64,000 bases of DNA from Candidatus Poriferisocius sp. GTDB taxonomy: Bacteria; Actinomycetota; Acidimicrobiia; Acidimicrobiales; Bin134. Below are positions 3,467 to 61,869 of this stretch, piece by piece; position 1 is the stretch's first letter, and the number at the start of each line of letters is the position of its first letter. The translations under genes were made by a program, and so were the position numbers. The notes under the pieces are model-generated. The model did no database searches and had not been told where the DNA came from. It saw only the letters and a list, made by a program, of their open reading frames with translations. The DNA is taken from assembly GCF_965202595.1 (NCBI RefSeq), contig NZ_OZ241836.1, positions 215,095 to 279,094 of the forward strand. Direction: 5' to 3'.

Positions 3467-6400
3467 GTGATGGTTGACCGGTTTGGTTTCGGTTGGGTGG
3501 GGTTGCGCCGGTTTGGTGGGCCTCTGGTTGTTTTGGTGTTGTTGGGGTCGGTGTTGGTTTCGGTGGGGGGTGTGGTTGCGCAGGGGGGTGTGCCGGCGTA
3601 TCCGTTGTCGCCGAAGGTGGAGGTGTTGGGTGGTGGTCAGGTTCGGTTGTCGTGGGAATCACCGGGGTCGGGTGAGGTGCGTTATGAGTACATGTTTTCG
3701 CAATCGACTGATGCTGGGACCACGTGGGTTCCGCCGGTGGACAGGGTGGTGGATACTTCTACGGGGTTAGCGCCTGTTTCGGGGGATCGTAGTGGGGTTG
3801 TGTGGCGGCCGGTGCCCGGGGGTGGGGGTGCTCGGTCGGTGGTGGTGTCGGGTTTGACGGTTGGTAGCAGGTACCGGTTCTGGGTGCGGGCGGTGAACGC
3901 TGCGGGAGCGGGCAAAATTCGGGGTATTGGTCGGTCGGATGGGTATTTGATGTCTGGTGTTGCGCCGGTGCCGGCGGCTTTGCGGGCGGTTCCTGGGGAT
4001 TCCCAGGTGGAGTTGAAGTGGACCAAGGCTCGGGGTGAGGTGGTGGGGTCGGGGTTTGCTACTATTTTGCGGTACGAGTACGCGATCAAACAAGGTGATG
4101 GGGGTTGGTCGGCGTGGTCGCCGATACCGGATTTGATTTCGAACAATGCGGTTGTGGCGGCTGAGGATCGCGAGTCGTTCACGGTCACGGGTTTGACCAA
4201 CGATGTTGGGTATTCGTTCCGGGTGCGGGCGGTCAACAAGCATGGCAACGGTGCCACCGGTATGGTGGGGCCGGTGGTGGTAGCAGGCGTGCCGGGGGCT
4301 CCTCGTGGGTTTGTGGTGATGCCGGGGGATAAGTCGGCGTTGTTGTCGTGGCAGCCGCCGGGGGTGGTTGGCTCGCCGATAACGGGTTGGGAAGTCCGGT
4401 GGACGAGTTCGGGTTACAGCGATCTGGGTAGCGCGGCGTGGCAGAGGGTTCCTGGTGGGGCCGGGGCCAGGTCTTATTATGTGAGTGGTTTGGATAATAC
4501 CAAGAGTCATTTGTTTGAGGTGCGGGCTGTCAACGCGTTGGGTGGGGGTTTGGGGGCGCGTTCCGGGTTCGTGTATTTGGGTGCGCTGCTGGAGGTGCCT
4601 GGTGGGTTTAAGACGAGGAAGGTGATGGAGTCGTCGGTGACATTGGGGTGGGACCAGCCGGCTAATTTAGTTAGTGGTGGTGGTAGTGAGGGGTTTCGGC
4701 GTTATGAGTATTCGGTGTGGGCTGGTGATGGTGATTGGGGTGGTTGGGTGGCGATACCGGGTGACTACGCGACTAGTTCGTTCACGGTTCCGGGTTTGAT
4801 GGCGGGCACCGGGTACCGGTTCAGGTTGCGGGCGGTGAATAGTGTGGGTGCGGGTGCGGTGGCTGAGACGGGTGTTGTTTATCCGGGTACGGTGCCGCCG
4901 GCGCCGGCGGTGGTTGCGGAGGTGGTGTCGGATTACACTATAGGGTTGCATCAGGTGGTTTTGTCGTGGACGGGTTCCGATGGTGGTTCCCCGGTGACGA
5001 AGTGGCAGTTGAAACATGCGACAACGGTGGACGGGTTGACCAGCGCGTCGTGGCATGATTTGTGTGATAACACAGCGGGGGCGGATCCGACCTGTGGGGG
5101 GTTGTTGACGGTGACGCTGCCCAGGAATCGGACTTTTGATTACAAGAATGCAACTAGCTGTTTGGTTGTGTTGTGTGTGGGGAGTTTGAAGGTGGGGGAT
5201 CATTATTTCGTGTTGCGGGCGCAGAATGCCAGGGGTGTGGGTTTGGAGTCTGGGGTTGTGAGGGTGAATATCGCCAAGGGTGTTCCCTCTATGGCGACGA
5301 CGGCGGTTTTGAGGGGTTATACTGATGATCCCCGCACCAATGGTCGCCCTCACATGGGGGTAAGCTCTCCTGTGAGTTATCTTCATGGTGGTAAGCGTTT
5401 GCGGTTTGAGTATTCGTGGAAGGTCGGTGATGGGCCGTGGAGTGGATGGGCTACTCAACAGGGTAGCTTGAGTAGAGCTACCGAGACTTTCGATGAGGTC
5501 ACTTTCCGGGTTGGGGAGACTTACACGTTCAGGACCCGGACGGTGTCTGATTTGGGGGCGGGTTATGCGGTCGAGTCGGAACCGTTTGTGTTCGGGGCTC
5601 CGCCTTTGCCCGGTGCTGATGGTTGGACGGGTTTTGCTTTGACGCGTCCGGAAGTGTTGGCGGTGCCGGGTAATGGTCAGGTGAAGTTGAACATCGTCCG
5701 ACCCAAAGCGACGCTTGTAAGACGTGCTGATGGGTTTGTGGTTGGTTATGAGAATGCTTTCACCGATACCGATGGTACTTATGATGACACGGTTTGGGAG
5801 TATTCGTATCGTCCCGCCGGGGGTGAGTGGTCGCCGTGGGCGGTGTCCAATACGGGTCAAAGGTTCGCTGATCGGGCTGGGAACAGCGCCGATGTGGCTG
5901 GCGATGGGATCACGGTGTCGGGTTTGCGCAATGGGGTGGCTTATGAGTTCCGGGTTAGGGCGCTGAACCGGCACGGTACCGGTTGGTTGGTGGGTCCGGT
6001 GTTGTATTCCAACGGTGCCGGTTTGTACAACAAAGCCGGCGATGTTTACCCCGACAGGGTAGCCATACCAGGTGTGGCACCCCCCGCCCCCGCAGGGTTG
6101 ACGGCTGTTGGTGGTGATGGTCAGGTAACGCTGTCGTGGATGTCGGTGGGTTCGGGGGGTCCGCCGATCATCCGCTGGGAGTACATAAAACAGGAACGAA
6201 CCGCGGGTAGTACAACGTTCGGTGATTGGGATGGAAATTGGACTCCGGTTCCGGGTTCGGGGCCGTCTACGACTTCGGCGGTGATAAAGGGTTTGACCAA
6301 CGGCTCGACGTACCGGTTCCGCCTGCGGGCGGTGAACGCTTTGATGGCCTTCGACAGCGAGGGTGTTTTGGAGACTGTGACTACCTCTGTCAACAAGGGT

Positions 6401-47881: not shown

Positions 47882-50371
47882 TTGACAACTTCAACACTGT
47901 TATAAAATTTGAAAAATACACTGTTCAAGTAAGTGACTTCTTCTGAAATACTGTCACAATTTTTTCAAATTACTACTGTAGTTGAGTTTACCAATATAGG
48001 ACTCCATGAAATCCCAATCCGGTAATCCGGGTTTTATTACAGGCAAAGGTATCCGTGATCGTTCCAAGCGGGCTTTCACAAGGGCATATCCGTAGTTGTA
48101 GGTGCCCTTGTGAGCGAAATCCATCACAGTCACTAGAAAGATGCCAATACCTGCGCTCATTCTCTCGTGCCTGATAATGTTTACCTTGTTACCCTTCAAG
48201 AACTCATCTGGCTGATAGAAGGCCACTACTCCCTCTGCTCCTATCGTTATACAGTTCCCCTCATAGGATGTGTCATGCCTACCGAAGCCGTCCACCCCGT
48301 TGTTAGACGCGGTACGCGTGATGTACGGCAGGCTGCCTTCAATAAGCTCTCTCTTATCGGTGTAAGGTCCAAGGGTAACAGCGAACGTTTCTCCGATATT
48401 GAAATACTCCCATTCCCTGTCAGTGAGCCGAAGATCAGATTCAGATATGGGTTGTGAATGTACGGCGTTAAGCTTACCCTGAGAAAACATAGCTCCTGTG
48501 AGTAATCTCAAAGAATACTGGAAGTCTTCCTGTGTCAACTGCCGGTAATCTCGCGTAATACAGGCCTCTGCGCACCACTCATCAGCTGGGTTAAGCTCTC
48601 TCATTTCACTGAAATATGGGACTTCATCTCTGTTGAGGAAATGCCTTACCCACTGATCTCGAATGGAAGGCCACTTGTTGTCCGGATCTACTCGACCCTT
48701 GTGCATCTCCACCACATAGCCGTCATCTTTGGCAAGTGCCAGCCAGACTTTTTTACCTTTTGGATGTGGGCGATGGGCTATAATCACCATGACGCAGGTA
48801 ACAGCGCTAGCTTTGGAGTTAAAAAACAGTTGATTTGGCATGGACAACACTGCTTCCAGCGTGTGTTTTTTCATCAACTTTGACTTGAAGTTGATGATCT
48901 TGTCACTTGTGGATAGAGCTGACTGCATGGGAATGATGGCAATACAGATGCCTCCATCACCTAAAATATCAAGGTTATTGAGTACAAACTCCCACTCTTC
49001 TTTGTCGTGTCTTTTGTTCGATTTATATGGAGGGTTGAGCATTCCTACAGTGGGCCGTTTAATTTTCATTCTTGCAATAATATCGGTATCGAAACAACTT
49101 GCTTGCTCTATATTGGATTTGCCATCTTGATGTATAAACATGTTGGAGACAGCCAGTGGAAAAATGTCAGCCTGTAGTTCAACTCCGAAAAGCTGGCTGT
49201 TCTTTATACGGGTTTCTAGTTCTTCCGATCCCTTAGCATCTGTAATCATACGTTTCATAGCGCTGATCAGGAATCCCCCAGTACCTGCACAATTATCGTA
49301 GACTATGGAGGACTTATTCACCTGGGCTAGATCTGCAAATAACTCGGTTATATGCGGTGGTGTAAGAACTATACCCAGGCCCTTATCCTTGTTGGCATAT
49401 CTCAGGAACTCAACGTACAGTTCGCCTAGGACATCCCGGTATTCATGGTTTTTGATGAAGGAGTTTATTTCGCTATCTATCTGCTGTACTAACTCTCTCA
49501 GTTCCCCATCCTTTTGAATCAAAGCTGTCTCGTGTTCAATGAATGAGAACTTCTGTTCCAGCAATCTAAGTTTTTCCTCATCCAAGTCGGCCTTCAACTC
49601 TGCTAGGACTCGTTTCTGAATATCCTTTGCCAATTCTACCGAGTCGTTTTCCGCGCCATATGATCTTTTGAAGGACGGATTCTCCAAAGCTATTAGTATA
49701 GCACTTATCAAGAGTGCTCTGTTGCTTTCAGCGACTTTGTTTCTATGTAAACGCTCATTCAATATACGAAGAAAACTCTTCAAAGAATCGTAGTCTTGCC
49801 TGTACTTATCAGGATTATTGTAGTAGCCCCGAATATAATCTGACGGAGAAAGCAAAGTTTCATCAAATATTGGAGTCGGGCACGCAACTCCTTTGAGGTG
49901 TAGAAAATGGGAAATTCTGGCATCTGTGTGAGTTTCTCCACTGATACCTATACAAATCACGTCGAATTCTTTTGATAGGTAAGACGAGTAATGCATGGCA
50001 CCATCAACCGCAAATTCGATGGGACGGTCCCGGTCAGGACTCTCATGTTTGTTCCGGTCAGCCTTGCACTCGATCACGATTAAAAGATCGGGTTCGTCTT
50101 TCAAAGTAACCAGGAACTCGGGATAACCTCGTCCTGCCCCTCCTTTCGATGCCGATGCCAGCAGTTTTTCGATTCGGCGGTGCTTGGATTTTTGCTCTTC
50201 CACTTCTACCTGGTCGGCGTACTGCCTGAAGTGGGATCGAACTATTTCCTCTGTGTTTCTCTCGTTAGGCACTGTTCGTTACTGGCTTCCTTGAGAGCGG
50301 TCGACCGGAGCACTCCATTTCACTTTCTCCATGAGCACATAGTACAGGTGGTGCGTGACAATTTGTGTGAT
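47882..50371. other. AT-rich islet 1 (about 2.5 kb), filling the space between the stop codons of convergent nuoN and the PQQ dehydrogenase gene
   Basis: An abrupt compositional switch is visible in the raw sequence at both edges. Hand counts on a few 60-nt lines give roughly 30-50% G+C, against roughly 65-70% in the flanks. No integrase or transposase is present. Confidence 0.8.
47954..50272 (-). CDS. Single-chain Type IIG-like restriction-modification enzyme (PD-ExK nuclease + gamma N6-adenine methyltransferase + HsdS-like target recognition domain)
   Basis: 772 aa. The N-terminus has PDLLIVIECK (D...ExK). The centre has VLTPPHITELFADL, DNCAGTGGFL (motif I) and MLNPPY (motif IV). The C-terminal ~270 aa show the HsdS TRD pattern ending in IPLPV. 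Confidence 0.7.
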   Translation of the reverse strand: MPNERNTEEIVRSHFRQYADQVEVEEQKSKHRRIEKLLASASKGGAGRGYPEFLVTLKDEPDLLIVIECKADRNKHESPDRDRPIEFAVDGAMHYSSYLSKEFDVICIGISGETHTDARISHFLHLKGVACPTPIFDETLLSPSDYIRGYYNNPDKYRQDYDSLKSFLRILNERLHRNKVAESNRALLISAILIALENPSFKRSYGAENDSVELAKDIQKRVLAELKADLDEEKLRLLEQKFSFIEHETALIQKDGELRELVQQIDSEINSFIKNHEYRDVLGELYVEFLRYANKDKGLGIVLTPPHITELFADLAQVNKSSIVYDNCAGTGGFLISAMKRMITDAKGSEELETRIKNSQLFGVELQADIFPLAVSNMFIHQDGKSNIEQASCFDTDIIARMKIKRPTVGMLNPPYKSNKRHDKEEWEFVLNNLDILGDGGICIAIIPMQSALSTSDKIINFKSKLMKKHTLEAVLSMPNQLFFNSKASAVTCVMVIIAHRPHPKGKKVWLALAKDDGYVVEMHKGRVDPDNKWPSIRDQWVRHFLNRDEVPYFSEMRELNPADEWCAEACITRDYRQLTQEDFQYSLRLLTGAMFSQGKLNAVHSQPISESDLRLTDREWEYFNIGETFAVTLGPYTDKRELIEGSLPYITRTASNNGVDGFGRHDTSYEGNCITIGAEGVVAFYQPDEFLKGNKVNIIRHERMSAGIGIFLVTVMDFAHKGTYNYGYALVKARLERSRIPLPVIKPGLPDWDFMESYIGKLNYSSNLKKL

Positions 50372-51805
50372 CTAACCCGCTGCGTCCAGCCGGTACACGG
50401 TGCCGTCGAAGCTCAGCGCGTACAGCTCCCCACCGGCATCCTCACCGAATGAGACCAGGGAGACGGGTGGGACGGAGACCCCCAGTTCGATCCGGGTGAA
50501 CATCCCCTGGTCGTCAACGCTCAGCCCCCACAGGTGGCCGGCGCAGTAGTCCCCGAACACGTAGGTTCCCACCAGGTCGGGAATGGCCGATCCCCGGTAG
50601 ACATGGCCGCCGGTGATCGAGCAGCCGTCCTCATGGCTGTACACGTGGATGGGTGGCACCAGGTCATCGGGGGTTGCGGTGCCGGAGAACCGCTCGTTTC
50701 CCTCGAACAGCGGCCACCCCAGGTTGGTCCCCGGCTCCCAGCCGTCGCCGGCCGCCAGCCTGTGAATCTCTTCCCACTCGTTCTGCCCGACATCGGCGAT
50801 CCACAGGTCGCCGGTGGTCCGGTCGAATGAGAACCGCCATGGGTTGCGGGCCCCGTAGGCCCAGATCTCGGGGCGGGCCCCGCCATCGGTGAAGGGGTTG
50901 CCGGGGGGAATGGTGTAGCCGGTTCCACCGCCGGCTTCGGGGTCGATGCGGATCATGGCCCCCAGAACCGAGTTCAGGTTCTGGCCGTGTCCGAAGGTGT
51001 CGTTGGCCCCACCCCCGTCCCCTAATCCGATCCAGAGGTGGCCGTCGGGTCCGAAGACCAGGTGGCCGCCGTTGTGGTTGCAAGCCGGTTGGGTCACGTC
51101 CAGCACCCTCCGGCCCCCATCCTCCAGAACCCGTTGCCCGGCCATGGGATACTCCACAACCTGGTTGTTGCCCTCCAGGTCGGTGTAGTGGGCGTAGAGT
51201 TTCGATCCGTCGGGGGAGAAGGCGATGCCCAGCAGTCCCATTTCGCATCTATTGGTGGTCAGATCGCCGATGTCCAGCACCGTTAGGGGAGGCTCATCAC
51301 CGCCGGCGGCCAGGAGCCACACCTGCCCGCCACGGGAGGCCACGTAAAGATCGCCCGGATCGCCGGTGCCCGGCCGGGCAACCAGGGCAATAGGTTCGGT
51401 CAGCGACACCACCGGGGCCAGCATCAGCAATGGCGCATTGGGTTGGTTGGGGTCGTTGGGTGTTGGCGGATTGGGTTGGTTGGGGTCGTTGGGTGTTGGC
51501 GGATTGGGTTGGTCGGGGGTTGCTGGTTGTGTTGGCTGCTGGGGTGGGGTTGATGTTGGGGTTGGTTCTGGGGGTTGGTTGGTGGTTGCTGGTTGTGTTG
51601 GCTGCGGGCGTGGGGTCGCATTGGTGGTTTCGGGGTCTCCGATACCTTCGTCGTTACCGCCCCCGCAGGCACCGGCCACCAGGCATACCCCGGCGATGAC
51701 CACCACCATTTGGCCCCGGGAGTTCGCGATCAAGTTCGCAGCAAGCCGGCTCGCTGACCGCAACCTGATGTGAGTAAGCATTCGGATCAGGAAGCTCGCG
51801 ATCAA
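50372..51805 (-). CDS. PQQ-dependent sugar (glucose/sorbosone) dehydrogenase, secreted or lipoprotein, with a Pro-rich repeat linker
   Basis: NHNGGHLVFGPDGHLWIGLGDGG, GNPF, EIWAYGARNPWRFSFD and GWPLFEG motifs. The N-terminal 24 codons lie in a 72-bp junction duplication, so TTG 51733 may be the ancestral start. A 33-bp in-frame repeat lies at 51437-51515. Confidence 0.8.
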   Translation of the reverse strand: MIASFLIRMLTHIRLRSASRLAANLIANSRGQMVVVIAGVCLVAGACGGGNDEGIGDPETTNATPRPQPTQPATTNQPPEPTPTSTPPQQPTQPATPDQPNPPTPNDPNQPNPPTPNDPNQPNAPLLMLAPVVSLTEPIALVARPGTGDPGDLYVASRGGQVWLLAAGGDEPPLTVLDIGDLTTNRCEMGLLGIAFSPDGSKLYAHYTDLEGNNQVVEYPMAGQRVLEDGGRRVLDVTQPACNHNGGHLVFGPDGHLWIGLGDGGGANDTFGHGQNLNSVLGAMIRIDPEAGGGTGYTIPPGNPFTDGGARPEIWAYGARNPWRFSFDRTTGDLWIADVGQNEWEEIHRLAAGDGWEPGTNLGWPLFEGNERFSGTATPDDLVPPIHVYSHEDGCSITGGHVYRGSAIPDLVGTYVFGDYCAGHLWGLSVDDQGMFTRIELGVSVPPVSLVSFGEDAGGELYALSFDGTVYRLDAAG

Positions 51806-52641
51806 GTTCGCAGGGGTCTCATCAACCCCTCCTGTACCACCGAGGCCACCAGATCACCGCTGCGGGTCCAGGCCGTACCCCAGGCCAAACCTCGGGCGTT
51901 GGATGCCGAATTCGACACTTGATCCAGAAAGATCCAGTCGTTCATGCTCAGCGGCCGGTGGAACCACATGGCGTGGTCCAAGCTGGCCATCTGCATGTCC
52001 ACATCGTTGCCCTGCACCGGGTGGGGGCGGGTGGCGGTGTCCAGAACCGTCAGGTCGCTGGCGTAGGTGAACATGCAGGTGTGCAGTACCGGGTCGTCGG
52101 GTAGGGTGCCGGTCGCCCGCAACCACACCTGAAGCCGGGGTTCCCGGCTCTCGGATCGTTTCGCCGGCGACCCGGTCGCATAGCGCAGCTCGATCGGGCG
52201 TTTCATCCGGCCCTGGTCATCCACCGGGAAACCGGGCCATACGAAAGGTTCCAGCTCCTCGGGATCGGGTATCCCGGTGGGGAAGTGGGTTTGGTGTTCG
52301 AAGCCGTCCTCCCGGCTCTGGAAGGAGGCCGACATGGCGAAGATGGGTTTGCCGTGCTGGATGGTGGTCACCCTGCGGGTGGTGAACGAGCGGCCGTCCC
52401 GCACCCGCTCCACCAGGTACACCAGGGGAGCCATAACATCGCCGGGACGGATGAAGTAGGCGTGAAGGCTGTGGACCGCCCGGCTCTCCACGGTGCGAGC
52501 TGCGGCCACCAGGGCCTGGCCGGCTACTTGACCGCCGAACACCCGCTGGCGGTCCTCTGTGGGGCTGACCCCCCGGAAGATGTCCTTCTCGATGGGTTCC
52601 AGATCCAGTAGCTCGACCAGATCATCCACCTCCGACTGCAT
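51802..52641 (-). CDS. tesB: Acyl-CoA thioesterase II
   Basis: LLDLEPIEKDIFRG....RQRVFGGQVAGQAL...HSLHAYFIRPGD parallels the E. coli TesB N-terminus. Double hot-dog length (279 aa). Confidence 0.9.
   Translation of the reverse strand: MQSEVDDLVELLDLEPIEKDIFRGVSPTEDRQRVFGGQVAGQALVAAARTVESRAVHSLHAYFIRPGDVMAPLVYLVERVRDGRSFTTRRVTTIQHGKPIFAMSASFQSREDGFEHQTHFPTGIPDPEELEPFVWPGFPVDDQGRMKRPIELRYATGSPAKRSESREPRLQVWLRATGTLPDDPVLHTCMFTYASDLTVLDTATRPHPVQGNDVDMQMASLDHAMWFHRPLSMNDWIFLDQVSNSASNARGLAWGTAWTRSGDLVASVVQEGLMRPLRT
52472..52551. repeat. Left copy of an 80-bp direct repeat (inside intact tesB)
   Basis: 76/80 identical to 54530-54609 by manual alignment. Confidence 0.85.
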
Positions 52642-52835
52642 GACCGGCTCATTCTACCGCCTTGAACCCGTGGCTGATGCATCTATCTGAAAATGTCCAC
52701 GTCTAACGGCCAAATAATCGGCTACCCACAAGTTCATGTCTGTAACAAACTCGTCAAACCACTCTGGTGGCATCTCATATGCTTTCTGTTTCCCTCTGGA
52801 AGTGTCCGTTTTCTACTCTAATGCATCAACATTTT

Positions 52836-53555
52836 TTAGAAGGGTAGGCGGTTGTTATAAGAAGCTTTGATTAACCGATTCTCAGCAGCAGTGAAATAGG
52901 CTTGGTCCAATTCAGCACCTAGGAAGCGTCGTTTCAGGTTTAGCGCTGCTACACCAGTTGATCCGACACCCATAAATGGATCATAAACAAGATCACCTTC
53001 TAGGGTGGCCAAATTTATTATATGTTCCAACACACGTACTGGTTTCTGCGTTGGGTGTTTAGGGTCTTTCAATCGTTCCCTGCCCATGCAGATAGGAGTT
53101 TCAATAAAGTTGTGCATATCAGACTGTTTCCCGAAGTTCCAGGTATGCCCTTTGTTCCACACACAAATAATTAGTTCACATGAGTTGAGAAATCCTGCTT
53201 TTCTGATCTTGGGTGCAGGGTTAGTTTTGTGCCAGACCATAAACTGAAACGTGTCAAACTCTGGGTCGAAAGCGTCATGCCACTGTCCCAACAAGTTATA
53301 ACTAGTGAAGGCAAAAATGTTTCCAGTTGGTTTCAAAATGCGTGTGAATTCATGTAACCACTTGGCTGGTATGAACTCTTCTCTATCCCATTCTGCTAGA
53401 TCATTGTTGAGATCAGAACGCCAGTTAAATTTCATGTTGCCAGTCGAATATGGGCTGAGATTGTATGGAGGGTCTGTGAGGATAAGGTCAACGGTGTGGT
53501 CAGGTATTGTTTTGATGTGCTCAGCGCTGTCAGCCCACACTGTTTCATATTCCAT
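52836..53555 (-). CDS. Beta-class N4/N6 DNA methyltransferase
   Basis: DLILTDPPYN (motif IV) lies near the N-terminus and DPFMGVGSTGVAA (motif I) near the C-terminus. That order and the 239-aa size fit the N6_N4_Mtase family. Confidence 0.85.
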   Translation of the reverse strand: MEYETVWADSAEHIKTIPDHTVDLILTDPPYNLSPYSTGNMKFNWRSDLNNDLAEWDREEFIPAKWLHEFTRILKPTGNIFAFTSYNLLGQWHDAFDPEFDTFQFMVWHKTNPAPKIRKAGFLNSCELIICVWNKGHTWNFGKQSDMHNFIETPICMGRERLKDPKHPTQKPVRVLEHIINLATLEGDLVYDPFMGVGSTGVAALNLKRRFLGAELDQAYFTAAENRLIKASYNNRLPF

Positions 53556-53556
53556 A

Positions 53557-54396
53557 TTATTCTCCCAAGTAGGTGTTTCGTATAGAGTCTAAAGCTAGTC
53601 GGATATAGTGTGCACTGTCCCTGTATGCTTTCAATACCCATTCATAACCGTTGTCTGATTGGCACACAAAGTTCCAAAAGTCTTGACCTATCAATAGTTC
53701 TTCGTCTGCAAAAAATTGTCGTACTCTTTCTTGTGCCCACGGTTGGCCTTCTCCAAATCTGTTATAGGCAGTAGCGAAGAAAGTACGGACTGTGGCATCC
53801 TCGGAAAGCTGATTGGTCAGTATCGTATATTGTTCCATAATAGCTTCTTTTTCAGAGCGTGCCTTCTTGTTGTCCAGGTCACCGCCTATCTTTAGTTCTA
53901 TCAGGTAGTGTTTGTTAGCTGCTCTGTCAATCAGATAATAGTCAGACCCGTGCTGTTTTATGATAGGTGAACCTTTTACTGATTTGTGCAGCTTTCTGTA
54001 GTCAGATAGAGATGGTGTTGCCCGTCGGCTTTTATAACTTTCTAATATCGCAGCGATGGTCGATATTTGATCTTCACTTATAAAGCCAGATATATTATTG
54101 TGAACCTCAAACGAGAGTTCTGCAATTTGGATTGCTAGTTTTTCTAACATGTTGCCTAGCGAACTGTCTAGTGATCGAACTAAAGCAGTATAGTATCGTA
54201 TTTCCGGCCCTAAAGCTTCAATAAAAATATTGTGTATTTTCATGTTTATCACGCCATTAGGGTTGTTTACTTCACTTTCGTGGCGCAGCTTAAACCCTTC
54301 CGCGTATGCCATCACACAGCCGCGTACAAGCGTTTCAACTGCCAGTTGCTTGGGTGTGTTGTCGTGCGTCATGCGGCCCCTGTTTCCAATTTTCAT
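53557..54396 (-). CDS. Probable Type II restriction endonuclease, partner of the adjacent methyltransferase
   Basis: 279-aa AT-rich ORF ending 1 nt before the methyltransferase start. It has a candidate PD-(D/E)xK-like core (DYYLIDRAANKHYLIELKIGGDLDNKK). It resembles the TdeIII-type family from memory only; this is unverified. Confidence 0.5.
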   Translation of the reverse strand: MKIGNRGRMTHDNTPKQLAVETLVRGCVMAYAEGFKLRHESEVNNPNGVINMKIHNIFIEALGPEIRYYTALVRSLDSSLGNMLEKLAIQIAELSFEVHNNISGFISEDQISTIAAILESYKSRRATPSLSDYRKLHKSVKGSPIIKQHGSDYYLIDRAANKHYLIELKIGGDLDNKKARSEKEAIMEQYTILTNQLSEDATVRTFFATAYNRFGEGQPWAQERVRQFFADEELLIGQDFWNFVCQSDNGYEWVLKAYRDSAHYIRLALDSIRNTYLGE

Positions 54397-54529
54397 TGCT
54401 GGTATTGTGTCAGACAGGAGTGACAGTTTTGCATTTTACCTGGTCAGATGTGATTTTGTTCATATTTGGTATAAACCTATAATAGGCCGAGCGGAGTAAG
54501 TCAAGAAGAAATACGCTGGGACAATCCTG

Positions 54530-54609
54530 GACCGCCCGGCCCTCCACGGTACGAGCCGCGGCCACCAGGGCCTGGCCGGCCACTTGACCGCCGAACACCC
54601 GCTGGCGCA
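54530..54609 (-). pseudogene. Orphan 80-bp fragment of tesB (codons ~31-57); right copy of the direct repeat bounding islet 2
   Basis: Encodes RQRVFGGQVAGQALVAAARTVEGRAVQ, versus RQRVFGGQVAGQALVAAARTVESRAVH in tesB. Homology stops abruptly on both sides. Confidence 0.8.
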
Positions 54610-54692
54610 CCAGCGTCGGCGCCGGGTGGTGGGGTGGGGCTGGCTTCGCCTACCCTCGGTTCAGGGGGTCTGGGCTACGCTTTCCTTCTCCC

Positions 54693-55322
54693 ATGTCGCT
54701 TCTTGTTTCGGCCCGCGCCCACTTGGTGGACTACAGGCACCGCCTGCTGCGTTACGGCGGGGCATCGGCGGTGGGGGTGGTGTTGGGGCAGACCATCCTG
54801 CGAGTGTGCTACGACCTGCTGGGATGGTCGGCGTTGGTGGCCAACCTGGTGGCGTTCCTTATAGCCAACATCCCCGTGTACCACCTGAACCGGTCATGGG
54901 TGTGGGACCGATCGGGTCCCAGTAGCTGGAGGCGCGAGGTGCTGCCCTTCTGGCTGGTTTCCTTCGCGGGGCTGGCCCTGTCGTCGCTTGCCGTGGGTTT
55001 GATCGACCGGGTGACCGGCAACGGCTGGTTGATCACCGTGGCATCGGTGGGGGCGTTCGGCACGGTATGGCTGGTGAAGTACGCGGTGTGCGACCAGTAC
55101 CTGTTCGGCCCCCCAGGCCAAAGCGGCGACCATGACGGTCCCAATCGGGAGATGGCAGGGGATCACAACGATCCCAATCGGGAGATGGCTGGGGATCACG
55201 ACAGCTCCAATCGGGGAATGGCTGGGGATCACGACAGCTCCAACCGGGGGATGGCAGGGGATCACAACAGCTCCAATCGGGGAATGGCAGGCGATGGAGC
55301 CCGACCGGCGGGCGTTCGCTGA
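54693..55322 (+). CDS. GtrA-family membrane protein with a repeat-expanded C-terminal tail
   Basis: GASAVGVVLGQ, FLIANIPVYHLNRSWVW and VKYAVCDQYLF fit the GtrA pattern. The tail is GDH[DN]..NR[EG]MA x5. Confidence 0.75.
   Translation: MSLLVSARAHLVDYRHRLLRYGGASAVGVVLGQTILRVCYDLLGWSALVANLVAFLIANIPVYHLNRSWVWDRSGPSSWRREVLPFWLVSFAGLALSSLAVGLIDRVTGNGWLITVASVGAFGTVWLVKYAVCDQYLFGPPGQSGDHDGPNREMAGDHNDPNREMAGDHDSSNRGMAGDHDSSNRGMAGDHNSSNRGMAGDGARPAGVR
55125..55295 (+). repeat. In-frame 33-bp tandem repeat x5 at the GtrA 3' end, abutting the next gene's start
   Basis: Units encode GDHDGPNREMA, GDHNDPNREMA, GDHDSSNRGMA, GDHDSSNRGMA and GDHNSSNRGMA. Confidence 0.9.
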
Positions 55323-57255: not shown

Positions 57256-58600
57256 TCCTATAGTTGTTCTCTGAGCACTCGAAGAAGGCGGTCATGCTCT
57301 GTATCCAAAAGTTCCTTTTGTGCTTCAAATTCTTCCAGTGCCTCAAAAAACTCTTTAACCATCTCTCTCTGGTTATCAATGGGTATAACTGGAATGGGAA
57401 TACATTCAATATGTTTTTTGTAAATGTGAGGCTGCCCTGTCCCTTGTTGTCTACTGTAAATTTCATTTTGGCGGCTTTTTACGCAAGCATAAAGGTATCC
57501 AGTTAGAAATTTAAATTCATCCCTACTATATACTACAATACTATCTGATGCCCATATAGGCCCACTGTGCCACCAAACATAGCATGAGTAGGCACCGCTC
57601 TTGCTTATAGTAAAGCAATTTCCGCGGTGTGTAAAATTTTTGTGGTTGTACGGACTGGACCCACCGCCAGCAATAACAGGTATATTTCCTGGGAGTATCT
57701 CCTGCTTTGTGATTGATTTCCCATTCTCTAAATAAGCAACATTTTTTAGTAATACATAGTCGACACTTTCAGGAACAGGCCATAGTGAATTGGTTAGTGC
57801 AGCAAACACGTTTTTCATGTTACGGGTTTTGACGACAGAGACTGAGCGATTCATATCCTCAGGAATCGGGTCAGGTTCATCCTGGTATGATAACTGCCAT
57901 ACTTCCTCCTTCTGACAAAGAGTTGAAACACCGTAGCAAACAGGCTTCATCAGCGTCCTTCGCATCACTGTCAACCAGGCGAATCTCACCCCTGCTGAGA
58001 CTTTGGGAAAATGGAATGTTGGAGAAGACAACTTGGAATTTGTTCTCTGGAGGGTTGTTTATGCTGTTAATTTGAGTCACACCTGAGTGGCCATCTCCGA
58101 ACAGAATCATATTCATTTTCGCTATTCGTGCGTTGCTAGTTATTTCTTGCCCAAATATGGTTTTGGTTTGAAGAATCTCTATATCCCGAGGTGACCTCCC
58201 AGCTTTGAAGCTAAGGTGTTTGTATGATTCTACTAGAAATCCACCTGTGCCACAGAAGAGATCGAATACTGTCTGCCTAAACTCTGGATCAACAAGTTTT
58301 ACCATAAATCGGACAATATGTCTGGGTGTGAAGTATTCACCAAGGTCATTCTGAATGGTTGTACGCTGAATAAAATGCTCAAATGCAACTCCTTTTATGT
58401 CTTCATCAACACTTGACAAACTTAAAGGGTTCAATTCTAATATAATTTTCTTTAGTACTTTTCCATCCTTAATTTTGGTTTCAGAAATAACCTCACTAGC
58501 ACCGTATCGACATCTGCGACAGTTACCCCTGAACCACAAAACACCAGGTCAGAAGGGGTGTCTTTAGCGCCGTACATAAGTCGTGTTCTGGTCAGATCAA
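57256..58600. other. AT-rich islet 3 (about 1.3 kb) between two convergent host genes
   Basis: A sharp compositional switch follows the stop at 57255. The right edge is fuzzier, around 58550-58660. Confidence 0.7.
57258..58539 (-). pseudogene. Decayed Type I/IIG-like methyltransferase-specificity (M-S) gene: frameshifted and truncated
   Basis: ORF 57877..58539 has the YFTPRHIVRFMV, DLFCGTGGFL and SNIPFS N6-MTase motifs, but lacks the N-terminal domain and ends early. The overlapping ORF 57258..58031, in another frame, encodes one HsdS-type TRD plus a conserved helix. A further frame break lies near 58540-58590. Confidence 0.7.
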
Positions 58601-60483: not shown

Positions 60484-60647
60484 CTGCTGTCCAGCAGTAC
60501 CCGGTAGTGCTCCGCTGGGGAGGAGGGCCGTATTCTCACCGTCACGCGTGCCATTCGTTGAGCAGTACCCGGTAGTGCTCCGCTGGGGATGCGGTTTGGG
60601 TTCTCACCGTCACGCGTGCCATTCGTTGAGCAGTACCCGGTAGTGCT
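60477..60647 (-). repeat. 68-bp tandem repeat (2 units plus a partial one) of the GT4-stop / methyltransferase-start junction, with two chained mini-ORFs
   Basis: The tca (stop) recurs at 60610 and 60542. Minus-strand mini-ORFs: 60613-60542 (VTVRTQTASPAEHYRVLLNEWHA*) and 60545-60477 (VTVRIRPSSPAEHYRVLLDSRC*). They are GTGA-chained, and the last overlaps the methyltransferase GTG by 7 nt. Confidence 0.85.
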
Positions 60648-61869
60648 CAACGGTCTTTTCCGCAGTGTGGTGCCAACTCCAGCGGCTCCTCACCCGTTCC
60701 CGCCCGGCTTGGCCTATCCGAGCGGCCATGGCCGGATTGTCCAGAATCCGAACGAGCGCCCCGGCCAATGCCTCGCTGTCTGCGGGGGGCACCAGCAGGC
60801 AGGTCTCGCCGCTGGTGCCGGCCACCTCGGGCAGCGCCCCGCCGGTGGTGGCCACCAGCGGTGTGGCGCTGGACATGGTTTCGATGGCCGGCAGCGAGAA
60901 CCCCTCGTACAGCGAGGGCACCACTGCCACTGAGCTGGTGGCGTACAGCTCCACAATGCGGTCATCGGGCACCCCCGACACGAACTCCACCACCTCGCCC
61001 AGTCCCAGGCTGTTGATGGTGGAGGAGGATGCACCCCCCTCGCGGGGTTTTCCGATCACGATCAGCCGCACATCCCGCTCGGTGCGCAACTTGGCCACCG
61101 CCTCCAGCAGGTAGCGCAGGCCCTTCATGGGCACATCCGCGCTGGCGGTGGTGATGATCTGCCCCGGCCGGCGGTCCACGCCGGGAAGCGGGCGGAACAG
61201 CTCGGTATCCACCCCCACCGGTACCACATGCATCCGGCCATGGGGTACCCGCTGGTCCCGGGCTATGTCGTCGAGGGACGACTCCGACACGGTGATGATG
61301 CGCCGCAAGCGGCGGGCCACCCGGGCCTGCATCCGGATGAAGGAGTACCAGCGTCGCTTGCCGAAACGATCCATCATCCCCCGGGCGTGCTCGAGCTCCA
61401 GTTGGCGGTCCACGGTGATGGGATGGTGGATGGTGGCCAGTACCGGTAGCCCGTCCCGCTCCATGCCCAAAAGCCCGTAGCCCAATGACTGGTTGTCGTG
61501 CACGATATCGAATTCCCCGGCTCGGGAGCGCAGTGCCTGCCAGGCCCGGAGCGAGAAGGCCAGCGGTTCGGAGAAGGCTCCGGTCATGAACGAGCCCACC
61601 TCGGCGGCATCGGCCCACGATTTGATCTCCCAGAATCCGGGTAACCGGCCCGGGTAGGCATCGTTGAAGATATCCAGGCTGGGAAGCCGGTGAAGCGGTA
61701 CCCGAGGGTCCAGAACCGGGTAGGGCTGCCCGCTCAGCACCTCCACGTGGTGCCCCAGATCGGTCAGCGCCCGACTCAGGTGATGGACGTACACGCCCTG
61801 GCCCCCGCAATGGGGTTTGCCCCGGTACGAAAGCAGGGCAATCCTGAGGGATCGATCCTCCGGGGCCAT
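60610..61869 (-). CDS. GT4-family glycosyltransferase
   Basis: IALLSYRGKPHCGGQGVYVHHLSRAL, and PSLYEGFSLPAIETMSSATPLV (EX7E region). Confidence 0.85.
   Translation of the reverse strand: MAPEDRSLRIALLSYRGKPHCGGQGVYVHHLSRALTDLGHHVEVLSGQPYPVLDPRVPLHRLPSLDIFNDAYPGRLPGFWEIKSWADAAEVGSFMTGAFSEPLAFSLRAWQALRSRAGEFDIVHDNQSLGYGLLGMERDGLPVLATIHHPITVDRQLELEHARGMMDRFGKRRWYSFIRMQARVARRLRRIITVSESSLDDIARDQRVPHGRMHVVPVGVDTELFRPLPGVDRRPGQIITTASADVPMKGLRYLLEAVAKLRTERDVRLIVIGKPREGGASSSTINSLGLGEVVEFVSGVPDDRIVELYATSSVAVVPSLYEGFSLPAIETMSSATPLVATTGGALPEVAGTSGETCLLVPPADSEALAGALVRILDNPAMAARIGQAGRERVRSRWSWHHTAEKTVEHYRVLLNEWHA

Follow-up and report, generated by a model that had tools for sequence, protein, structure and literature searches.

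Restriction-modification (R-M) systems are often mobile without a recognisable mobility gene, and their mode of movement is inferred mainly from the footprints left at their junctions. One such mode, insertion with long target duplication, was reportedly described by Nobusato and colleagues in 2000 (Gene 259:99). As documented by Furuta, Abe and Kobayashi (Nucleic Acids Research, 2010; PMC2853133), R-M systems of Types I to IV in many phyla, with one case in an actinobacterium (Clavibacter), have inserted with target duplications of more than 30 bp, lack mobility genes and correspond to a single copy of the target at the empty site; the repeats often span a translation start or stop, leaving the target gene intact, and DNA breakage was proposed to be involved. 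A locus with a comparable footprint is described here from a sponge-associated Candidatus Poriferisocius sp. (assembly GCF_965202595.1, contig NZ_OZ241836.1, positions 215,095 to 279,094; this stretch of 64,000 nucleotides is referred to as the window), in which a Type II R-M cassette lies between the acyl-CoA thioesterase gene tesB and a divergent gtrA-family gene, with an 80-nt piece of tesB repeated at the far edge of the cassette. The locus is best regarded as an offset, probably trimmed form of the long-target-duplication footprint already known from such insertions, and neither as a novel class of element nor as an island that rebuilds tesB.

Positions are given in window numbering throughout, and both tesB and the R-M cassette are read from the minus strand. 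A repeat search recovered a two-copy direct repeat of 80 nt with a spacing of 2056 bp, consisting of the resident copy X within tesB and an ectopic copy X' (Table 1), which are identical at 76 of 80 positions (95%) and share a longest stretch of perfect identity of 26 bp. At 95% identity, a match of this length goes far beyond what chance would give. The initial annotation had recognised this tesB-derived repeat and its 76 matching positions correctly, but had placed the second copy at 54530-54609, 2 nt away from where it lies. Its description of an AT-rich islet holding a Type II R-M pair is likewise borne out, with a PF09520 endonuclease and a PF01555 methyltransferase, as is its statement that the segment between the repeats contains the 5' end of tesB together with the cassette. 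That segment comprises tesB codons 1-30, the ~45 bp of native sequence ahead of them and ~1.84 kb of AT-rich DNA (52691-54527), whose guanine-plus-cytosine (GC) fraction of 0.38-0.45 compares with 0.63-0.69 in the flanks (for the cassette, 42% GC versus 65% for the genome). X' meets the AT-rich DNA to the base, whereas X is separated from the cassette by 139 bp of native sequence made up of tesB codons 1-30 and the tesB-proximal end of the spacer (IG_b).

The same arrangement is found in a second contig record (L052; ERZ26051151), which extends from the DUF1214 gene through tesB and is 99.985% identical to the window over 6720 bp, the sole difference being one homopolymer indel. This indel is a G6/G7 length difference within tesB codons 24-25 (L052 position 5513, window position 52568), and the start call of the L052 TesB (274 aa) is shifted; it is probably a sequencing error in a record whose name carries "2x", a real frameshift variant being the possible alternative. 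An assembly artefact, either a chimeric join or a collapsed repeat, would be a natural concern with a metagenome-assembled genome. Because L052 holds an identical structure (the independence of the reads behind it being unconfirmed), misassembly is unlikely, and as the two repeat copies also differ at four sites and all open reading frames (ORFs) are intact, an artefactual origin appears extremely improbable.

A scan with one genome per species provided 15 relatives for comparison, all sponge-associated Acidimicrobiales and several of them named Candidatus Poriferisocius; these empty-site genomes represent different species and not conspecific strains. TesB occupies the same position in all of them, with protein identities of 74-94%, and the gene order DUF1214, methyltransferase, gtrA, divergent tesB and GSDH is common to all 15, except that DUF1214 has no match in L001 and L013-L015 and that its match in L006 is cut by the contig end. 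The gtrA-tesB spacer measures 88-192 bp in these relatives, and neither R-M genes nor low-GC DNA occur in it in any of the 15. In each, the 80-mer is present as a single copy inside tesB, and no genome carries an ectopic tesB fragment. The initial annotation had suggested that relatives without the R-M genes be checked for the 80-bp fragment; since none of the 15 has a second copy, the duplication goes with the islet, and on this comparison both duplication and cassette are lineage-specific.

Spacer alignments identify the inserted block as X' plus the cassette, situated within the variable middle of the ancestral spacer. The tesB-proximal remnant, IG_b, is about 35-45 bp long, with an outer boundary uncertain by ~10 bp, and contains just ahead of the tesB ATG a conserved, -10-like motif, GGTAG(A/G)AT...GGTC, that is probably the tesB core promoter. 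Nucleotides 1-90 of tesB are 92% identical to L001, as compared with 85-95% for other tesB segments, and no break in similarity is seen. As judged from these alignments, tesB, its codons 1-30 and its core upstream region are native, undisturbed and in their ancestral position. With ~35-45 bp and 85 bp of their own upstream sequence kept, tesB and gtrA are both probably still expressed. In the corresponding spacer of L001, the closest relative, two copies of a ~27-bp motif (CTGGACAA[T/G]CGGCC[A/G]CTACCCG[G/A]TAA) are found at L001 positions 5900-5975; this motif is absent from the window and from the other relatives, and the spacer middle evolves fast.

Table 1. Features of the tesB-gtrA interval carrying the R-M cassette (window positions).
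Feature	Positions	Strand	Description
tesB (acyl-CoA thioesterase II), intact, 279 aa	51802..52641	-	Pfam PF02551, PF20789, PF13622
Repeat copy X	52472..52551	-	tesB nt 91-170 = codons 31-57; resident functional copy
IG_b, tesB-proximal end of ancestral gtrA-tesB spacer	52642..52685	-	matches last 30-40 bp of spacer in L001-L014; high GC
AT-rich 3' tail of cassette	52686..52835	-	short conserved reading frame (MPPEWFDEFVTDMNLWVAD...) common to the L053 cassette
Beta-class amino-methyltransferase, TDPPY motif, 239 aa	52836..53555	-	PF01555 (N6_N4_Mtase), 1.9e-35
Type II restriction endonuclease, 279 aa	53557..54396	-	PF09520 (TdeIII/MjaII/HinfI family), 3.6e-37
AT-rich leader of cassette	54397..54527	-	promoter-like site 54462->54433; no homologue in the L053 cassette
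Repeat copy X'	54528..54607	-	ectopic copy of tesB codons 31-57; cassette on one side, gtrA-side spacer on the other
16-bp near-palindrome CGCTGGCG/CACCAGCG	54600..54615	.	centre exactly on the X'/spacer junction 54607/54608
IG_a, gtrA-proximal part of ancestral spacer, 85 bp	54608..54692	.	first ~60 bp align to relatives' gtrA-side spacer
gtrA-family membrane protein gene	54693..55322	+	PF04138; divergent from tesB; syntenic in 15/15 relatives

Of the five features by which Furuta et al. (2010) defined insertion with long target duplication, four are found at this locus: restriction and modification genes, an insert of less than 20 kb free of other mobile genes among the ORFs scanned, a repeat longer than 30 bp and a single-copy empty site. 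As in the described cases, the target spans a gene start and the neighbouring gene survives. In contrast, the fifth feature, repeats directly flanking the insert, is seen on one side only, X' abutting the cassette and X standing 139 bp off, and a crossover between X and X' would fail to recreate the empty site. To account for this combination we tentatively favour an R-M insertion with a target duplication of ~220 bp, after which the gtrA-side copy lost at least 139 bp. The insertion would have duplicated a target extending from 52472 to ~52690 and containing the tesB promoter, start codon and codons 1-57, with the complete gene ending up downstream of the cassette and a stub of its 5' part upstream. 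The promoter-proximal spacer and codons 1-30, at least 139 bp, would then have been deleted from the gtrA-side stub between two 8-nt inverted repeats, so that the arms came to abut as the near-palindrome and codons 31-57 (X') alone remained; the same deletion would abolish tesB function in an ancestral single copy but do no harm in a redundant stub. Finally, the copies would have diverged by four transitions, or tesB would have been partly replaced through allelic recombination. The short distance of 139 bp between the cassette edge and the source of X' follows directly from a target duplication.

Loss of a loop at the base of a hairpin leaves a palindromic scar, as in palindrome-mediated deletions of the Glickman and Ripley type. 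The near-palindrome pairs at seven of eight symmetric positions, a level reached by 0.07% of centres in native DNA (7e-4), and its centre coincides exactly with the junction of X' and IG_a, which supports a secondary deletion. Several observations weigh against this sequence of events. It takes two events, and no intermediate still holding the whole ~220-bp copy upstream was encountered; the collections searched contained no genome of the species in another state, exact-protein look-ups (TesB and the 271-aa form of the endonuclease) returned nothing, a TesB homologue search gave no relative closer than L001 (94% protein identity), and an exact 25-mer from the gtrA-side spacer had 0 matches in metagenome contigs. 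The published cases have both repeats abutting the insert, as against one here. The palindrome was noticed post hoc, and its gtrA-side arm falls in the variable middle of the spacer, where ancestry is unverifiable. Lastly, three of the four differences between the copies are derived in X, which is under selection, and one in the presumably neutral X', a distribution that is mildly unexpected if the direct ancestor of X served as the template for X'.

These four differences are all transitions, three at third codon positions and one changing Ser52 to Gly. With the 15 outgroups used for polarisation, their state is retained by X' at 3 sites and by X at 1, placing most of the change on the functional gene. 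Possible explanations are chance, an allelic replacement at tesB after the event, which is just as possible as an old date, and derivation of X' from another allele. The initial annotation had read the mismatches as a sign that the event is not very recent; they are real and do show that the structure is not brand new, yet with three of four on the functional copy they provide no clean clock and no simple date.

The main alternative is a one-step complex insertion, in which end joining or template switching healed a broken spacer and, in doing so, captured the cassette and, at one junction, an 80-nt patch of tesB filler. The patch would have been copied or cut from the neighbouring tesB on a sister chromosome, and no larger duplication would ever have existed. 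Such an event would be reminiscent of the filler DNA and templated insertions seen at illegitimate-recombination junctions, for instance in homology-facilitated or double illegitimate recombination during natural transformation, where short nearby host sequence likewise appears at the junction of foreign and host DNA, and it would account for X' directly abutting the cassette and for spacer halves that otherwise resemble a simple split. However, neither X' junction has a microhomology able to prime copying, no anchoring homology was detected, and a patch of 80 bp would be a long one for filler in bacteria. Where IG_b and X begin, the two can be matched with gaps (GCCA-CGG--GTTC versus GCCAGCGGGTGTTC), but this microhomology reaches only p=0.07 against random window pairs and is given no weight. 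Random fragment capture, moreover, would not favour a source 139 bp away, and the palindrome is left unexplained. On balance a one-step origin appears doubtful, although it is the alternative to be taken most seriously.

One form of the filler explanation involves the endonuclease itself. GGNCC sites at 52473-77 and 52551-55 lie within 1 nt of both ends of X, as is true of 0.5% of random native 80-mers (p~0.005), and if GGNCC is cut by the enzyme, as it is by MjaII, the patch could be a restriction fragment. Against this, a further GGNCC site inside X at 52512 is uncut, the methyltransferase is CcrM-like with a DPPY motif as opposed to the 5-methylcytosine (m5C) enzyme M.MjaII, and no GANTC site occurs at any junction. 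A self-restriction reading of the GGNCC sites at both ends of X is weakened by the adenine-type methyltransferase and the m5C nature of M.MjaII. The coincidence is kept as an unexplained lead.

The predicted specificity of the cassette bears on this point. The endonuclease scores 128.7 bits against the PF09520 model (cutoff 27.2), and its gene lies 1 nt upstream of the methyltransferase gene, both co-oriented with tesB; the two are the only long ORFs of the cassette, and no mobility gene was seen. In its family match, adjacent methyltransferase and compact, predicted co-transcribed pair, the cassette resembles other PF09520 Type IIP R-M systems (MjaII, TdeIII, HinfI). It differs in that the partner is a short, CcrM-like beta-class amino-methyltransferase, whereas MjaII, which cuts GGNCC, is accompanied by an m5C enzyme (PMC11033074). 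The best named matches of the methyltransferase are to adenine enzymes (CcrM model, 1.5e-37; M1.HpyAVI, 2.5e-32; CcrM structure, 1.1e-29), as compared with 2e-16 for N4-cytosine enzymes, and a precomputed domain listing labels the Pfam family of the endonuclease HinfI. The hints conflict: GGNCC is suggested by the named members of the family, and GANTC, the site of CcrM, by the resemblance of the methyltransferase to that enzyme; a literature search yielded no recognition specificity for TdeIII. Because the methyltransferase is CcrM-like with a DPPY motif, M.MjaII is an m5C enzyme and the Pfam family carries the HinfI label, GANTC would be the likelier specificity. Genome frequencies of GGNCC and GANTC are unremarkable among 16 similar palindromes and do not discriminate between them. 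GGNCC is mildly rare in native window DNA, with an observed/expected ratio of 0.86 under a maximal-order Markov model and 485 occurrences against 618 expected from second-order simulations; TGNCA (0.67) and ATNAT (0.74) are rarer still, so the GGNCC deficit is not specific evidence of selection by a GGNCC-cutting enzyme.

The initial annotation had envisaged recombination or integration by way of tesB sequence, the 5' end of the gene being carried or regenerated by the island. In such a model, the cassette would bring a 5' piece of tesB along with it and enter by recombination, homologous or site-specific, at the 80-bp sequence. The 2056-bp unit does hold the cassette, the tesB promoter and codons 1-57, and as a circle could in principle enter the tesB of a naive conspecific by a single crossover that leaves the gene intact; that X' is outgroup-like at three of the four variable sites is also compatible with two alleles having met. 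Integration through tesB should, however, leave the displaced end of the spacer with the promoter and codons 30-1 beside X', where IG_a is found instead, and the tesB 5' end and IG_b, being native by alignment with the relatives, show no similarity break and are not element-borne. Perfect identity between X and X' reaches at most 26 bp. No integrase, recombinase or transposase was found among the long ORFs of 52691-54527, which were those scanned, or in neighbouring genes, and terminal inverted repeats are absent from the islet and its borders. The model further needs a conspecific donor that already has the structure, so that its origin is unexplained. Integrative islands at tRNA- or tmRNA-type attachment (att) sites, which are served by tyrosine integrases, offer a parallel in that host-gene direct repeats bracket foreign DNA and leave the host gene intact. 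They differ from the present locus in having an integrase and in their target, which here is the 5' region of a protein-coding gene; here, too, the distal repeat X' is followed by spacer and not by displaced tesB codons 30-1, and related cassettes, at the few loci available, are found without the same att or gene fragment. Taken together, these points make an origin by integration through tesB improbable.

A related idea is that the 2,056-bp X-X' unit now serves as a recombinase-free, homology-guided mobile form of the R-M system, looping out through the two repeats as a circle and re-entering the tesB of a naive conspecific by a single crossover, again with the gene left intact. This is given little credence here; if it were true, loss of the unit from its present host would cripple tesB, and the linkage would stabilise the unit. 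In a variant of this idea, the boundaries of the repeat would be set by the cuts of the cassette's own endonuclease.

It may also be asked whether the ectopic 80-bp copy and the cassette belong to one history at all, since they could be independent events at a rearrangement-prone spacer, with the fragment either predating or postdating the cassette. As each is confined to one lineage, their co-occurrence is n=1; the spacer middle is highly variable among the relatives, and L001 has internal repeats of its own. However, as X' abuts the AT-rich DNA to the base, two rare events would have to share a breakpoint, and no relative has an ectopic tesB fragment, so that independence seems quite unlikely. 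A slight chance is reserved for explanations outside those considered.

Related cassettes were found elsewhere. At E<=1e-10 the endonuclease has 2911 homologues from a wide range of organisms, most of them 62-66% identical. One related cassette is at an unrelated locus of another, 3.05-Mb genome (L053), where the endonuclease is 88% identical at the protein level and the DNA 81.4% identical, the latter over exactly the two genes plus a 93-bp tail (window 52809-52718 against L053 9846-9937). The reading frame in this tail (MPPEWFDEFVTDMNLWVAD...) shows mostly synonymous-type changes between the two cassettes, and L053 has ~370 bp extra between the methyltransferase gene and the conserved tail. 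Neither X' nor any flanking repeat occurs at the L053 cassette, which indicates that this cassette lineage moves on its own. The L053 cassette comes right after a TacA-type antitoxin gene and a 122-aa ORF without a Pfam match at the usual position of the cognate toxin gene (L053 7350-7927), and it may have inserted into that toxin gene or replaced part of it. A metagenome scan with a conserved methyltransferase 20-mer returned only distant (~70%) cassettes on contigs of 34-59% GC. The expectation of the initial annotation that the same cassette might be flanked by tesB fragments elsewhere found no support, the L053 and distant L054-L060 cassettes, few loci in all, being without tesB sequence. 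In phages and plasmids, only short 69-74% matches to unrelated R-M genes were seen. At 42% GC, the cassette is young on the scale of compositional amelioration.

At the X' junction, a 66-aa ORF (54410..54610) runs from X' into the cassette; its sub-threshold 4HBT_3 match reflects the tesB origin of the repeat, and the ORF is treated as non-functional. Short tandem repeats are also present in neighbouring genes. The C-terminus of GtrA contains four to five tandem 33-nt units (55125-55295) that encode the 11-aa repeat GDH[DN]xxNR[EG]MA and extend over the beginning of the methyltransferase ORF that follows; the match to GtrA ends at residues ~139-174 of 209 in most relatives and reaches 209 in L001 and L013. 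On the other side of tesB, the GSDH-family protein (50372..51805) has imperfect 33-nt tandem repeats at 51431-51629, corresponding to an N-terminal Pro/Thr/Gln-rich low-complexity linker, and relatives align from residue 127 on only.

Outside three AT-rich islets of about 39-47% GC, at 47954-50272, 52691-54527 and 57258-58560, the GC content of the window is 63-69%. All three islets are of R-M type, lie within 10.6 kb and stand between native genes of a block conserved in order in the 15 relatives, in whose equivalent ~12.8 kb the only low-GC DNA consists of short, differently placed stretches in L001, L003, L010 and L015. R-M acquisition seems to have a hotspot here. No flanking repeats were found at the other two AT-rich R-M islets, and the repeat is therefore not a general feature of the islets. 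Islet 3 (57258-58539, minus strand) contains a 220-aa N6_Mtase ORF matching profile positions 2-184 of 311 and overlapping a 257-aa specificity-domain ORF, and it looks like a frameshifted or decayed methylase-specificity fusion with the predicted architecture of its intact 772-aa counterpart in islet 1, although identity between them amounts to only 27%; no restriction subunit lies near islet 3. Further along, between two minus-strand genes at 60493-60648, are two full 68-bp tandem units (90% identical) and the first 20 bp of a third, each unit beginning with AGCAGTACCCGGTAGTGCTC.

The arrangement has consequences for its host. Because the repeats are offset, recombination between X and X' does not allow clean excision, and the cassette would be lost only along with the tesB promoter and codons 1-30; the repeats thereby couple R-M loss to damage of a host gene. 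For R-M systems more generally, the locus adds a well-resolved footprint from an uncultured sponge-symbiont actinobacterium, with a clean empty site in 15 relatives, an offset repeat and a palindromic scar. This combination suggests that a long target duplication can be trimmed after the event, in which case surveys restricted to abutting repeats would undercount R-M insertions of this type.

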